DNA from: Escherichia phage vB_EcoM-pEB20
Strand: one strand, 5' to 3'
Length of the DNA stretch: 64,000 bases
Sequence record: OP114733
Each line of letters opens with the position of its first letter. The first letter of the stretch is position 1. The notes beneath the pieces were generated by a model that was given only the letters and a program-made list of their open reading frames with translations, had not been told where the DNA came from and did no database searches. Positions 3,992-11,949 of this stretch are shown in pieces. The position numbers and the translations under genes were made by a program.

Positions 3992-4065
3992 GGCCCTGTA
4001 GCTCAACGGTTAGCAGCAGTCCCCTCATAAGGGAAAGGTTACCAGTTCGAATCTGGTCTGGGTCA
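3992..4065 (+). tRNA. tRNA with CAU anticodon (Met or Ile2/lysidine type)
   Basis: Acceptor stem GGCCCTG/CTGGGTC, T-arm ACCAG-TTCGAAT-CTGGT, anticodon loop CTCATAA; no encoded CCA; D and anticodon stems each have one mismatch. Confidence 0.7.
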
Positions 4066-4071
4066 TATATT

Positions 4072-4148
<77 letters not shown>

Positions 4149-8316: not shown

Positions 8317-8618
8317 GTAAGATTATTGAAATTAAAGTACCAGAGTTTAATGATGCCAAATCCGCTTCAGATGCAATTTATAAACTTCTGAATCAAGCTG
8401 AACGTATCGAAGAAGAAGCAACAAAGATCGCAGACCAATATGCCGTATCATTTTCTGTAGGTGATTATGGTAGCGGTCGTACTTATTATCCTAAGGGTGA
8501 AATCGTATCCCAGTGGATGAAAGATGAAATTGAAAATAATGGTGGCGATGTTAAGCGTGAAGGTAATGGTTACGTTATTACTGAAGGTGCTTGGGTTTCG
8601 TCTTCTGCGTTGTGCTAA
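8313..8618 (+). CDS. small protein, paralog 1 of GWVSSSxxC family
   Basis: 101 aa ending GAWVSSSALC. Confidence 0.55.
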   Translation: MSKIIEIKVPEFNDAKSASDAIYKLLNQAERIEEEATKIADQYAVSFSVGDYGSGRTYYPKGEIVSQWMKDEIENNGGDVKREGNGYVITEGAWVSSSALC

Positions 8619-8627
8619 GGAATCATT

Positions 8628-8900
8628 ATGTCTAAAGAACAAACCGAACTGGCTGAAGCTGTAGCAAAAATCTATGCAGCTATTGAGGCTGCCAAAGAAA
8701 TTGCTGATAAACAAAACACAACATTCGACTTGTACCCAGCTTATGGTATGGGTGGAACCTATCATTCACCCGGACATCTTAAAGCCGATCTTGAACGTTG
8801 TACAAAAAACGGCTATGCTGAATGGGCTGACGTTTACCAATACGACTACAACCTGAGCCTTGAAGATGGCGGTTGGGTTGCATCTTCTCACACTTGCTAA
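8628..8900 (+). CDS. small protein, paralog 2 of GWVSSSxxC family
   Basis: 90 aa ending GGWVASSHTC; junction TGCTAAGGAA gives SD for itself. Confidence 0.55.
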   Translation: MSKEQTELAEAVAKIYAAIEAAKEIADKQNTTFDLYPAYGMGGTYHSPGHLKADLERCTKNGYAEWADVYQYDYNLSLEDGGWVASSHTC

Positions 8901-8909
8901 GGAAACAAT

Positions 8910-9107
8910 ATGTCTCGTGAATTAGATTGTGCTGTACGTACGGCAGTAGCTGCTCTGGAAAACCTGTTCCAAATTGCAACAGAAGAACGCGAAGAAGTTA
9001 CATTATGGATTGAAGATAACGCAGGTCTGAATCTCCAGGACGCGATCTCATTATCCCACAATAGTATCACTGTTCAAGGCTGGGTATCATCTAGTTATTC
9101 TTGCTAA
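8910..9107 (+). CDS. small protein, paralog 3 of GWVSSSxxC family
   Basis: 65 aa ending QGWVSSSYSC. Confidence 0.5.
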   Translation: MSRELDCAVRTAVAALENLFQIATEEREEVTLWIEDNAGLNLQDAISLSHNSITVQGWVSSSYSC

Positions 9108-9111
9108 AACA

Positions 9112-9148
9112 GTTTACAACAAGATAGGGCTATGTTATAGTAGTCCTA
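9112..9148 (+). promoter_or_regulatory. early promoter in IR ATAGGGCTA..TAGTCCTAT (PeSL-like)
   Basis: GTTTACA 9112, -10 TATAGT 9136. Confidence 0.55.
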
Positions 9149-9169
9149 TCAAAACAAATGGAGTCCACA

Positions 9170-9409
9170 ATGATTTATTACGAAAGTATCGGAACCAAAG
9201 TGGTTGGTAAAACCATTACTCGTGAAAAGTTTGCAAAGATATTCGATATGCGTTATAAAAAATCTGAACACAAAGGCATCCGATTCGAAGATGCGCACTG
9301 TACAATTTGCCCTTATAATGAAGACATAAACGGTACAATCGTTCCATTGGTAGAGGCTTCACATGATGACCTCTGGGATGAATATGATATCGCATGTCGT
9401 GAAATTTAA
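9170..9409 (+). CDS. hypothetical protein
   Basis: 79 aa from ATG 9170 (GGAG SD 6 nt upstream). Confidence 0.5.
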   Translation: MIYYESIGTKVVGKTITREKFAKIFDMRYKKSEHKGIRFEDAHCTICPYNEDINGTIVPLVEASHDDLWDEYDIACREI

Positions 9410-9437
9410 GTTAATGAATTAATCCGAGGAAAATATT

Positions 9438-10394
9438 ATGATGTTGGTTATTGGTTCTCGTGCACTTCACTATCACGGTCTTATTGATTCTAGCGCTATT
9501 AAAAATAGTGATTGGGACTTTATTGCGGACCAATGTTCTTGGAATGCATTCAAAAATCAAATGATGGGTGTATATGTTCACCAAGATAACCCTGATGTCC
9601 AAGTTTTCAAATGCTTCCATAATGGACGCGAAACTCATTTTGAAGCATATATTGTTCCGGCAATCACTAATGTCCGTGAATTAGTCGGTGAACTCACTCC
9701 TGAAGATTTCACGTCTTCTTATGACCTTTTAAAATACGCCAAGAAAAATTTGACTAAAGACCGTTTGAACGGGTTTTACTGGGCAACTCCTGAGATATGT
9801 CTTGCAATTAAGATGTCTCATCGTTTCAAGAAAAATAATCCATTCTTTTTAAAGACTATGAACCATATTCAGTATCTTCGTGGTAAAGGTGTTACACTGG
9901 ACGATGAACTTACTGAAATTATGCTGAAACGCCAGAAAGAAACCTTGAATTATGCTCACCCAGTTCTTGACACTTCTAAAAGTGCGTTCTTTAAAGATGA
10001 CATCTATACATATGACCATGATACTATTCATGAAGCCATTGCACTAACAGACCGTCCAGCGTATACATTTTACATGAAAGATGGTTCTGAAGTCATGACC
10101 TCACGCGAGAAGTTCGAATCATTACCAGAAATGGTCAAATTGGCTGGTGTATACGAAGAATCATGTGTACTAGCGTTAGAACGTTCTCAGATTCCTAATA
10201 ACTTTGAAATCCATCCACGTGATAGTTTTATGATGGCTCTTGAAAAGGTCTGTACTTCAATCACATCAGGTTGGTTCCGTGAATACGCCTGGGAAAACCA
10301 CAGCAAAGTAGTAAGTATGTACCAAAGCTTAGGACATGACGATTACGTCAAACGTTTCAAACAAAATTTCCATATGGTAAAACCTTTCAAATAA
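9438..10394 (+). CDS. hypothetical protein with weak nucleotidyltransferase-like N-terminal motif
   Basis: 318 aa; VIGSRALHYHG...SDWDF resembles the G[SG]...D-x-D NTase signature; unverified. Confidence 0.55.
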   Translation: MMLVIGSRALHYHGLIDSSAIKNSDWDFIADQCSWNAFKNQMMGVYVHQDNPDVQVFKCFHNGRETHFEAYIVPAITNVRELVGELTPEDFTSSYDLLKYAKKNLTKDRLNGFYWATPEICLAIKMSHRFKKNNPFFLKTMNHIQYLRGKGVTLDDELTEIMLKRQKETLNYAHPVLDTSKSAFFKDDIYTYDHDTIHEAIALTDRPAYTFYMKDGSEVMTSREKFESLPEMVKLAGVYEESCVLALERSQIPNNFEIHPRDSFMMALEKVCTSITSGWFREYAWENHSKVVSMYQSLGHDDYVKRFKQNFHMVKPFK

Positions 10395-10406
10395 TTTCGC
10401 AAAACT

Positions 10407-10444
10407 GTTTACATCTTGATAGGACTATGTTATAGTAGTCCTAT
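10407..10444 (+). promoter_or_regulatory. early promoter in IR ATAGGACTA..TAGTCCTAT (PeSL-like)
   Basis: GTTTACA 10407, -10 TATAGT 10431. Confidence 0.55.
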
Positions 10445-10464
10445 TAAAACATGAGGAGAATATT

Positions 10465-10770
10465 ATGAAATTAGGCGAAACCAACCGAATTGGTCTTTTA
10501 ACAATATTTGTATCACTTTTTTACGCAGCTCTTTCTGTTGCAGTATTACAAAAGGCTTACAGTATGGATGGTGTTCCTGGTTTTGTATTCTTATCGCCGT
10601 TTTTGCTATTCGTTGGAGCATTGTTATTATATGCCACGACTAGTTTCGACCATAATGTCTGGGTCAATTATAAATGTAAATTGTCTGAAGAAGAACACGC
10701 AGAAGCTCGTAAAAAAGCTATTGAATCTACCAATCTAGAAAATTTCATTAAAGAATGTCGAGGAAAATAA
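10465..10770 (+). CDS. membrane protein of the NFIKECR C-terminal family
   Basis: 101 aa, two TM helices, C-terminal ENFIKECRGK; SD GAGGAG. Confidence 0.55.
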   Translation: MKLGETNRIGLLTIFVSLFYAALSVAVLQKAYSMDGVPGFVFLSPFLLFVGALLLYATTSFDHNVWVNYKCKLSEEEHAEARKKAIESTNLENFIKECRGK

Positions 10771-10771
10771 T

Positions 10772-11458
10772 ATGAATAGTTCTAAAGTGTTTAATAGTCA
10801 AGCTCGTGCAGTAGGTGGTTTTGCTCATGCGATTAAAAATGACCAGATTAAAAACGAGCCTATGTTCTTTAACTGCGATTTGAATTTTGCTTTTGATAAT
10901 GGCGGCCCAATTACTCGTAGCTTTATCCAAAATCTTCCTGACGATTGGAAAGACTCGGATGTAGTATTTGATTCACGAGTCCACATGTTGATGCCTGGTT
11001 GGTATCCTGCTATCCCAGGTTATCACCATGACGATGTACCACGCCCGGATATTCCGGTTGGTCAACATTTTATTACTGCAGGACAACCTGACTATGACAA
11101 CCCTCGTTACCATTCTGAACATATTCTTGGTCTTGTTAACGCTGATGTGTGTCCTACTCATTTTGCAACAGGAACTGCAGAGTTCAGTCAGATTCCTGAT
11201 GGCGAACTTATCTATCGCCAGTGGCACAAAGAAGTCCTCGAAAAAATTGAAAAAGGTGAACTAGAGAAATGGGAAGCTCCAGACCGTACTCTTCTTCAGT
11301 TTGATTGGCAAACATGGCACACTGGCTCTCATGCAATTAGTAATGGATGGCGTTGGTTCGGACGTGTATCTCGTAATACAGACCGAGTTAAAAAGATTAC
11401 CAATGAAATTCGTGTCAATGCTCAAGTTTATCTGGAATTCCCTATGGAAGGCTGGTAA
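10772..11458 (+). CDS. hypothetical protein, possible Fe(II)/2-oxoglutarate dioxygenase fold
   Basis: 228 aa; His-x-Asp (YHHDD), distal His (WHTGSH) and Arg-x-Ser (GRVSR) in the order typical of 2OG oxygenases; unverified. Confidence 0.55.
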   Translation: MNSSKVFNSQARAVGGFAHAIKNDQIKNEPMFFNCDLNFAFDNGGPITRSFIQNLPDDWKDSDVVFDSRVHMLMPGWYPAIPGYHHDDVPRPDIPVGQHFITAGQPDYDNPRYHSEHILGLVNADVCPTHFATGTAEFSQIPDGELIYRQWHKEVLEKIEKGELEKWEAPDRTLLQFDWQTWHTGSHAISNGWRWFGRVSRNTDRVKKITNEIRVNAQVYLEFPMEGW

Positions 11459-11949
11459 TGATTAACAAAACATATTGGTCTAATATTGACGACGGCAATG
11501 AAGGTATTTCGTACTATTCAGTGGATTGGACAGGATGTCCATCCTACTTAGTGAAACATATTTGCCAAGAATTTAAAATCGACCAGCCAGCAGGTATTAT
11601 TGTGAACAGATACATTAATGGATATCAACCTATCGATGAAGTAATACGAACAACTCAAGCTGAGCTTGAAAAGTTTTTCAATAAGTGCCAATGGATAACA
11701 GGATGGATTATATTTGTACCGTCGGTATGGTTTTTTAGTACTAAGGTGAGTTCTTTCGGTTTTGTTGATATTACTGCTATCTTATTAGCATCTAGTATCA
11801 TAAGTGTTGTTGGTGGCATCATTGGCGGCGGTGCCGCCGCTATCATTATTAATCTTATTAAAAGTAGTTTACAAGAACGTAAAGACAAGATAAAAGCCAA
11901 GAATAATGAAGTTGAACGTTTTATTACCGAATGCAGGAATTTGAGATGA
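11458..11949 (+). CDS. membrane protein of the NFIKECR-like C-terminal family
   Basis: 163 aa, TM helix and Gly-rich segment, C-terminal ERFITECRNLR. Confidence 0.55.
   Translation: MINKTYWSNIDDGNEGISYYSVDWTGCPSYLVKHICQEFKIDQPAGIIVNRYINGYQPIDEVIRTTQAELEKFFNKCQWITGWIIFVPSVWFFSTKVSSFGFVDITAILLASSIISVVGGIIGGGAAAIIINLIKSSLQERKDKIKAKNNEVERFITECRNLR

Follow-up and report, generated by a model that had tools for sequence, protein, structure and literature searches.

The Fe(II)- and 2-oxoglutarate (2OG)-dependent oxygenases are a well-known kind of enzyme, built on a double-stranded beta-helix (DSBH, or jelly-roll) core in which the His-x-Asp (HxD) pair, the distal His and the 2OG-binding Arg have expected strand positions. 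In TauD, R266 binds the C5 carboxylate of 2OG and R270 binds the sulfonate of taurine, and in PhyH the 2OG-binding Arg stands at the same spacing from the distal His as it does in TauD. TET/JBP 5-methylpyrimidine dioxygenases, which combine Fe(II)/2OG chemistry with a jelly-roll core, occur in phages (bioRxiv 10.1101/2025.08.14.668559). Here we examine a gene of Escherichia phage vB_EcoM-pEB20 (sequence record OP114733), at positions 10772-11458 of the 64,000-nucleotide stretch that was analysed, hereafter the window, which is RB69-like T-even phage DNA (genus Mosigvirus). Its motifs had marked it as a possible Fe(II)/2OG dioxygenase, and the conservation of its family together with a structural model now makes it very likely that it encodes an iron- and 2OG-dependent oxygenase whose catalytic residues can be named. 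With the TET/JBP enzymes it would share the phage origin, the Fe(II)/2OG chemistry and the jelly-roll core.

The DNA of the gene is 96.8% identical to that of RB69 and 97.5% to that of Mosigvirus mar005p1, and its RB69 counterpart, RB69ORF132c, carries the annotation "hypothetical protein". The same holds across the phage collection, in which the gene occurs in 472 records, all annotated hypothetical. PHROG 1843, to which the protein belongs, has no known function, and the family as a whole is uncharacterised, essentially phage-restricted and without a curated Pfam or NCBIfam model.

Invariant residues and predicted fold

The original prediction pointed to an H-x-D (YHHDD), a distal His (WHTGSH) and an R-x-S (GRVSR), and read in the sequence these do occur in that order, as Y84-H85-H86-D87-D88, as W182-H183 with H187 at the end of the motif, and as G197-R198-V199-S200-R201. 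The motif alone is weak evidence, because about 5% of shuffled sequences carry it: the pattern HxD..(40-160)..H..(8-20)..RxS arose in 4.8% of 20,000 composition-preserving shuffles of the protein, and in 7.2% when HxD/E was allowed, which places it only weakly beyond chance. Among the 49 open reading frames (ORFs) of at least 150 amino acids in the window, one carries it, namely the gene discussed here.

The pattern becomes significant through its conservation. The protein has 1295 detectable homologues, and its family makes up 737 clusters at 50% identity in a library of 1.84 billion proteins. An alignment of 88 diverse representatives, 32-54% identical to the window protein, contains exactly five invariant columns: H85, D87, H183, R194 and R198. 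The HxD/E...H triad of the Fe(II)/2OG superfamily is present in canonical order in all 88 sequences as H85-x-D87...H183, and this part of the proposed facial triad stood, while H86, D88 and H187, the other candidates within the quoted motifs, vary freely. The proposed 2OG-binding R-x-S also held in part, with R198 invariant and position 200 occupied by Ser (51 of 88) or Thr (34 of 88) in 85 sequences, but the second invariant Arg, R194, had gone unlisted and may be the binder. These two Arg follow H183 by 11 and 15 residues. Of the basic residues, R69, R91, R198 and R214 each recur in 81-88 of the 88 homologues, and H71 and H117 in 81 each.

In an AlphaFold2 model built from 27 homologues (mean predicted local distance difference test score, pLDDT, 88.3; predicted template modelling score, pTM, 0.86; weaker at residues 91-110 and over the last seven), the protein is predicted to have the DSBH core of the superfamily, the feature for which the original prediction had proposed an AlphaFold model. 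The core strands run as E64-73, E116-122, E129-138, E165-168, E173-178, E182-185 and E192-201. H85 and D87 follow the first long strand, H183 lies on E182-185, and the strand after it, E192-201, carries R194, R198 and S200 and with them the basic residue that the superfamily places after the distal His. In the model, then, the motif residues would stand where the DSBH topology canonically places the HxD pair, the distal His and the Arg that binds 2OG. The top Foldseek matches in the PDB are Fe/2OG dioxygenases (SptF, EvdO2, proline hydroxylase H11, GriE, HygX and EctD), at modest scores (E about 1e-3, template modelling score 0.3-0.4). When predicted viral structures were searched, uncharacterised phage proteins came up as the close matches, and proteins named as PhyH and 2OG-Fe(II) oxygenases among the more distant ones.

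A third line of evidence comes from long homologues (387-474 amino acids), found in Chlamydiae and Oligoflexales metagenome-assembled genomes and in metagenomes, which are tandem duplications of the oxygenase domain (Table 1). Domain fusions were considered as a clue to function and set aside, since these proteins duplicate the same domain and contain no foreign one. In all six duplications examined, the N-terminal copy keeps H85, D87, H183, R194 and R198, and the degenerate C-terminal copy has lost them together, which is the behaviour expected of a catalytic residue set. Invariance of the five residues, the fold matches and this joint loss all support the 2OG-oxygenase interpretation first drawn from the motifs.

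The duplications hint that the single-domain protein works as a dimer, and for the duplicated homologues themselves they suggest a dimeric working unit with a pseudo-enzyme partner. The terminal Trp is kept in the C-terminal copy wherever its end still aligns (four of the six). The last two residues of the window protein, G227-W228, are conserved in 85-87 of the 88 homologues; despite this conservation the extreme C-terminus is the sole part of the model below pLDDT 50. It could be a functional tail, such as an active-site lid or a dimer contact.

Comparison with known 2OG oxygenase families

Judged by the sequence models that define them, PhyH, TauD/TfdA, AlkB and TET/JBP all exclude the protein. 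The original prediction had suggested AlkB, TET/JBP and PhyH as affiliations, and none was borne out: there is no Pfam match at E <= 1 to PhyH (PF05721), to AlkB (PF13532) or to TET/JBP (PF12851), hhalign against E. coli AlkB gives a probability of 0.2%, and TET/JBP is absent from the top structural matches. Membership of TauD/TfdA (PF02668) is likewise unsupported, with no Pfam match. A Pfam scan of the 88 family members returned noise only (PF05721 in one of 88, E 0.068), no NCBIfam model matched the protein, and PADLOC, with its models of anti-phage defence, gave no family at E <= 0.01. One homologue cluster in UniRef is named "Phytanoyl-CoA dioxygenase family protein", an automatic label.

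The comparison with TauD is nevertheless instructive in its spacing. E. coli TauD reads W98-H99-T-D101 and H255-x10-R266-x3-R270-x-T272, the phage family W/Y84-H85-x-D87 and H183-x10-R194-x3-R198-x-S/T200, and each has a conserved Thr between the HxD and the distal His (T126 in TauD, T129 here). When the family was aligned by hhalign with 14 TauD/TfdA sequences built from plasmid records, H183, R194, R198 and S200 fell on H255, R266, R270 and T272, in an alignment that is not significant; against E. coli TauD alone the probability was 0.2%, which is uninformative. The best PDB match of the actinophage subfamily profile is the TauD-family structure 3swt (E 0.42, not significant), in which the distal His and both Arg coincide. 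The TauD-like register, including WHxD on WH99TD101, was the best local alignment with HMMER-PDB (3swt), with E. coli TauD and with hhalign, none of them significant. We read the resemblance as a possible mechanistic analogy, not as membership.

PhyH-like small-molecule enzymes (EasH 4nao, EctD 4nmi, proline hydroxylase H11 7dzz, ColD 8xpf and EvdO2 4xac) are 9-15% identical in sequence to the predicted oxygenase, which is shorter (228 versus 245-290 amino acids) and differs from them in a conserved 28-residue insert between the HxD and the next core strand (88-115, G-Q-P-x-Y...P), in the second invariant Arg, R198, and in the nearly invariant C-terminal G-W. AlkB differs in the placement of its basic residues, since R204 and R210 stand 17 and 23 residues after H187 when read in its sequence, unlike the spacing found here; AlkB-type demethylases also score lower structurally than the PhyH-like enzymes, and the phage family is acidic.

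Distribution and conservation

The gene is carried by RB69-like coliphages and by T4-like genera infecting Aeromonas, Klebsiella, Citrobacter, Enterobacter, Serratia and Edwardsiella, and also by a 50-kb Stenotrophomonas phage, Vequintavirinae, Gordonia and Mycobacterium phages, Lysinibacillus phages and T7-like prophages. A pattern of conserved peptides from the family alignment was scanned for in 185,579 species of bacteria and archaea, with a single genome per species, and no more than 25 loci were confirmed. The eight of these that were inspected all have phage-type genes close by (replication genes, T7-like RNA polymerase or DNA methylase). The family appears to be essentially phage-borne. 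The "bacterial" homologues were considered as a source of cellular operon context and rejected for that purpose, as their loci adjoin phage-type replication genes.

Across T4-like genera (loci L010-L078) no neighbouring protein is as well conserved as the predicted oxygenase, which keeps 76-90% identity against 44-82% for NudE, 59-80% for lysozyme and 44-74% for the upstream DUF7275 protein. One of these loci (L015) illustrates the disparity, with the oxygenase 82% identical and NudE, lysozyme and DenV 44%, 59% and 64%. Either unusually strong constraint or recent horizontal exchange would account for such conservation.

Proposed chemistry and possible substrates

By analogy with the superfamily, the protein would act as a soluble, stand-alone, non-haem Fe(II)/2OG oxygenase whose Fe(II) is bound by a 2-His-1-carboxylate facial triad made up of H85, D87 and H183. 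2OG would chelate the iron, with its C5 carboxylate gripped by Arg of the last strand, R194 and/or R198-x-S/T200, possibly together with T129. O2 would then drive the decarboxylation of 2OG to succinate and CO2, and the resulting Fe(IV)=O would hydroxylate or otherwise oxidise a C-H bond of the prime substrate. Because R194 lies 11 residues past the distal His, the spacing of TauD R266, it may be the 2OG binder, which by the same analogy may leave R198 to bind an anionic group of the substrate.

If the protein is such an oxygenase, we tentatively propose that its substrate is not a polymer but a nucleotide or a small anionic metabolite, a choice we hold with less than even confidence. We propose it because the closest folds are those of small-molecule (PhyH-like) enzymes, because R198 sits where TauD places its sulfonate-binding R270, because the conserved basic residues exceed what 2OG binding needs, and because the family is mostly acidic (isoelectric point, pI, 5.6 for the window protein, family median 6.15, with 72 of the 88 homologues acidic).

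Several results weigh against this account, some against the enzyme class and some against the substrate. The HxD segment and the insert after it are the least confident part of the modelled core (pLDDT 66-85, with little regular structure). The protein has no Pfam-A match at E <= 1, neither the protein by itself nor any of three family profiles found a significant match among PDB sequences, and hhalign with TauD/TfdA reached a probability of 0.6% (E 0.096). Genomic context supplies no pointer of its own. We collected 244 loci, of which 167 are non-identical and which fall into 33 lineages at 60% identity; partners were sought by all-against-all clustering of the neighbours in the first 110 loci and by seeded searches in all 244. 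Among the 110 clustered loci there is no constant partner gene, and none recurs in more than four of 29 lineages. Such neighbourhoods as there are, with replication genes, transfer RNA (tRNA) clusters and RtcB, fit a nucleic-acid substrate equally well. The general picture is of a gene that stands alone, in regions that are early, accessory or devoted to replication and are of the kind where tRNA clusters and RNA-repair and NAD-salvage genes also occur.

An enzyme of the same class acting on nucleic acid, by AlkB-like repair or by modifying a base or ribose, is rather unlikely, though the likeliest of the alternatives; it would act on DNA or mRNA of the phage or the host or on tRNA, the most attractive of these targets. 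In many lineages the gene sits in replication or nucleotide modules beside DnaB, a T7-type primase-helicase, PolA, DNA ligase, dCMP deaminase or ThyX, and the protein is of AlkB-like size (228 versus 216 amino acids). tRNA genes occur within 10 kb in 60 of the 167 non-identical loci and in 15 of the 33 lineages, and are directly adjacent (34-91 bp) in four loci (L071, L085, L073 and L074), but tRNA clusters commonly sit in accessory regions anyway and these counts stand without a baseline. The RNA ligase RtcB lies within 3 kb in the actinophages ClubL and Rey and in related prophages; in total, however, it was found within 10 kb in only 15 of 167 loci (14 of them within 3 kb) and three of 33 lineages, and these are confined to those actinophages, their related prophages and one metagenomic contig, for which reason RtcB was rejected as a general partner. 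The Arg spacing, the mostly acidic family and the lack of an AlkB or TET/JBP Pfam match also speak against a nucleic-acid substrate. For RB69 itself, the arabinosyl-5-hydroxycytosine pathway of DNA modification is fully assigned to other genes, with no oxygenase involved, and the published gene set does not include RB69p132 (PMC13326640); a role in that modification was accordingly dropped.

It is unlikely, and to us somewhat less probable again, that the enzyme serves host takeover by hydroxylating a conserved protein of the host, such as a ribosomal protein or a translation factor. Protein hydroxylases are known from bacteria, among them YcfD/RoxA and the EF-Tu prolyl hydroxylase. Early expression is probable, and a protein so much better conserved than its neighbours would fit a conserved macromolecular target, but a universal small-molecule substrate or recent horizontal transfer explains the conservation equally well. 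The matches that speak for a protein substrate score no higher than matches to many other subfamilies, there is no P4H, JmjC or cupin_4 Pfam match, and the protein is a bare 228-residue catalytic domain, without a peptide-binding extension or extra domain.

A further idea, doubtful as it stands, cuts across substrate types. The family is very highly conserved and phage-restricted, and it recurs in accessory islands near tRNA clusters, RtcB and genes of NAD+ salvage. Its role might be in counter-defence or host takeover, with the enzyme oxidising a nucleotide-derived molecule, such as an immune signalling nucleotide or a derivative of NAD or ADP-ribose, or else a tRNA or translation component targeted by defence.

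The narrower suggestion that the enzyme is an accessory to NAD+ reconstitution or ADP-ribose metabolism (NARP2-type counter-defence), acting on nicotinamide, phosphoribosyl pyrophosphate, nicotinamide mononucleotide, ADP-ribose or a related nucleotide, seems to us very unlikely. It draws on four loci (L038, L049, L072 and L079, at about 8530-10700 in each) in which NAMPT (PF04095 and PF18127) immediately precedes the oxygenase gene and its stop overlaps the oxygenase start by 4 bp, and on four more (L064, L071, L080 and L084) in which it lies within 3 kb. The oxygenases of NAMPT loci are only 45-68% identical to each other, and some of the same loci carry NMNAT-Nudix fusions and a Macro-domain gene. 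In the window, nudE is two genes downstream, and the annotations of its homologues in RB69 and T4 name ADP-ribose and NADH as substrates. Yet stop/start overlaps are the norm in phage genomes, the junction of the oxygenase gene with e.2 included, and are no proof of a functional link. NAMPT occurs within 3 kb in only nine of 167 oxygenase loci (five of 33 lineages) and NMNAT-Nudix fusions in six (four lineages); in the reverse direction, one of 80 phage NAMPT loci sampled from IMG/VR carries the oxygenase. These counts led us to reject a link to NAMPT or NARP2 as a general rule. The NARP2 preprint mentions no oxygenase, and a literature search on the gene name, and on an oxygenase with RtcB or NAMPT in phages, found nothing.

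The NAMPT-oxygenase loci are worth recording in their own right. A further contig (L296) groups with the four overlapping cases as metagenomic phage contigs of this type, and one of those four (L079) also has an NMNAT-Nudix fusion, a Macro-domain gene, RtcB, a metallophosphoesterase and a Pol-beta-type nucleotidyltransferase nearby. These contigs look like an accessory island of NAD+ salvage and RNA repair.

Finally, it is barely credible that the protein is no catalyst, either a DSBH or cupin-fold binder of metal or ligand or a coincidental motif, for although the shuffles, the lack of a significant sequence-level link to any 2OG oxygenase family and the lower confidence of the modelled HxD region allow for it, the five residues expected to bind Fe(II) and 2OG are the sole invariant ones in 88 sequences and are lost together in degenerate duplicated copies.

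Local gene neighbourhood and comparison with T4

Positions of the gene, its proposed catalytic codons and its surroundings are collected in Table 1. Past the oxygenase gene the order is e.2, a small ORF, the Nudix hydrolase gene nudE and the lysozyme gene e, and from ORF133c to nudE the genes abut or overlap without gaps. The candidate promoter would drive ORF133c, the oxygenase gene, e.2, ORF130c and nudE as one packed unit, which suggests early co-transcription.

Table 1. Coordinates of the predicted oxygenase gene, its proposed functional residues, neighbouring features and related loci.
Feature	Sequence	Position	Strand	Remarks
tRNA-Met(CAT) and tRNA-Arg(TCT), adjacent	window	3992..4148	+	about 6.6 kb upstream of oxygenase gene
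RB69ORF134c homologue, 318 aa	window	9438..10394	+	DUF7277 (N-terminal) and DUF7275 (C-terminal)
Promoter candidate, sigma-70 / T4-early-like	window	10408..10436	+	TTTACA-17-TATAGT, extended -10 TG; 10/12 consensus matches; upstream of ORF133c
RB69ORF133c homologue, 101 aa	window	10465..10770	+	upstream neighbour; matches membrane-protein PHROG 2203
GAGG Shine-Dalgarno	window	10760..10763	+	8 nt before oxygenase ATG, within 3' end of upstream gene; read from sequence
Coding sequence of predicted Fe(II)/2OG oxygenase, 228 aa and stop	window	10772..11458	+	ATG start, TAA stop; RB69ORF132c homologue, PHROG 1843
Codons H85-H86-D87, proposed HxD metal ligands H85 and D87	window	11024..11032	+	H85 at 11024-11026, D87 at 11030-11032; part of conserved P-x-I-P-G-W/Y-H-x-D motif
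Codon H183, proposed distal His metal ligand	window	11318..11320	+	invariant, 88/88; model strand E182-185
Codons R194-W-F-G-R198-V-S200, two invariant Arg and S/T on last core strand	window	11351..11371	+	proposed 2OG C5-carboxylate binder, possible substrate-anion binder
GRVSR, G197-R201	window	11360..11374	+	
FPMEGW, residues 223-228	window	11438..11455	+	C-terminus
e.2 homologue, 163-aa membrane protein	window	11458..11949	+	downstream neighbour; start overlaps oxygenase stop (TAATG)
Tandem-duplicated homologue	L107	9923..11290		
Tandem-duplicated homologue	L111	4717..6060		
Tandem-duplicated homologue	L112	9797..11221		
Tandem-duplicated homologues	proteins P0136, P0166, P0220, P0269			
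NAMPT-oxygenase contig	L296	3..2065		
T4 gene 57B	L113	11953..12411		labelled 'RNA ligase' in RefSeq record

In RB69 the counterpart, ORF132c, is one of several RB69-specific ORFs (139c-132c) that stand together between e.3 and e.2, and in T4 these two genes directly abut. T4 bases 1-50000 and 62000-76000 were scanned and contain no homologue of the oxygenase, which agrees with the original prediction, where no T4 counterpart at this position was noted. The oxygenase gene is accessory: RB69-like phages and many others have it, and T4 lacks it at this site.

The two genes that flank it may be diverged paralogues: the products of ORF133c and e.2 share a C-terminal motif, ...E-x-F-I-x-E-C-R (BLASTP E 0.002), and ORF133c matches the PHROG of e.2 at E 1.2e-4. 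The e.2 product, which RB69 annotation calls a membrane protein, has 102 residues in T4 and 163 in the window. The RB69ORF134c homologue shares the oxygenase locus in most T4-like genera sampled, at 44-74% identity. The window's tRNA pair is the reduced counterpart of the T4 tRNA cluster, which is located beyond e.8. T4 57B we take to be the anti-CBASS (cyclic-oligonucleotide-based anti-phage signalling system) phosphodiesterase Acb1, in which case its RefSeq label may be outdated.

Significance

RB69 and related phages serve both as models and in therapy, and they carry a member of a family that neither Pfam nor NCBIfam covers and that comprises about 740 clusters at 50% identity. The spread of this family over unrelated phages, together with the highest conservation in its neighbourhood, argues for a selectable, host-independent function, and the naming of the catalytic residues makes that function directly testable. 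If the substrate is an ordinary metabolite, the gene would be one more auxiliary metabolic gene. If it is instead a nucleotide, a tRNA or an immune signal, the enzyme would add oxidative chemistry to the counter-defence repertoire of phages, and should the counter-defence reading prove true, its chemistry would be new to the known anti-defence proteins of phages.

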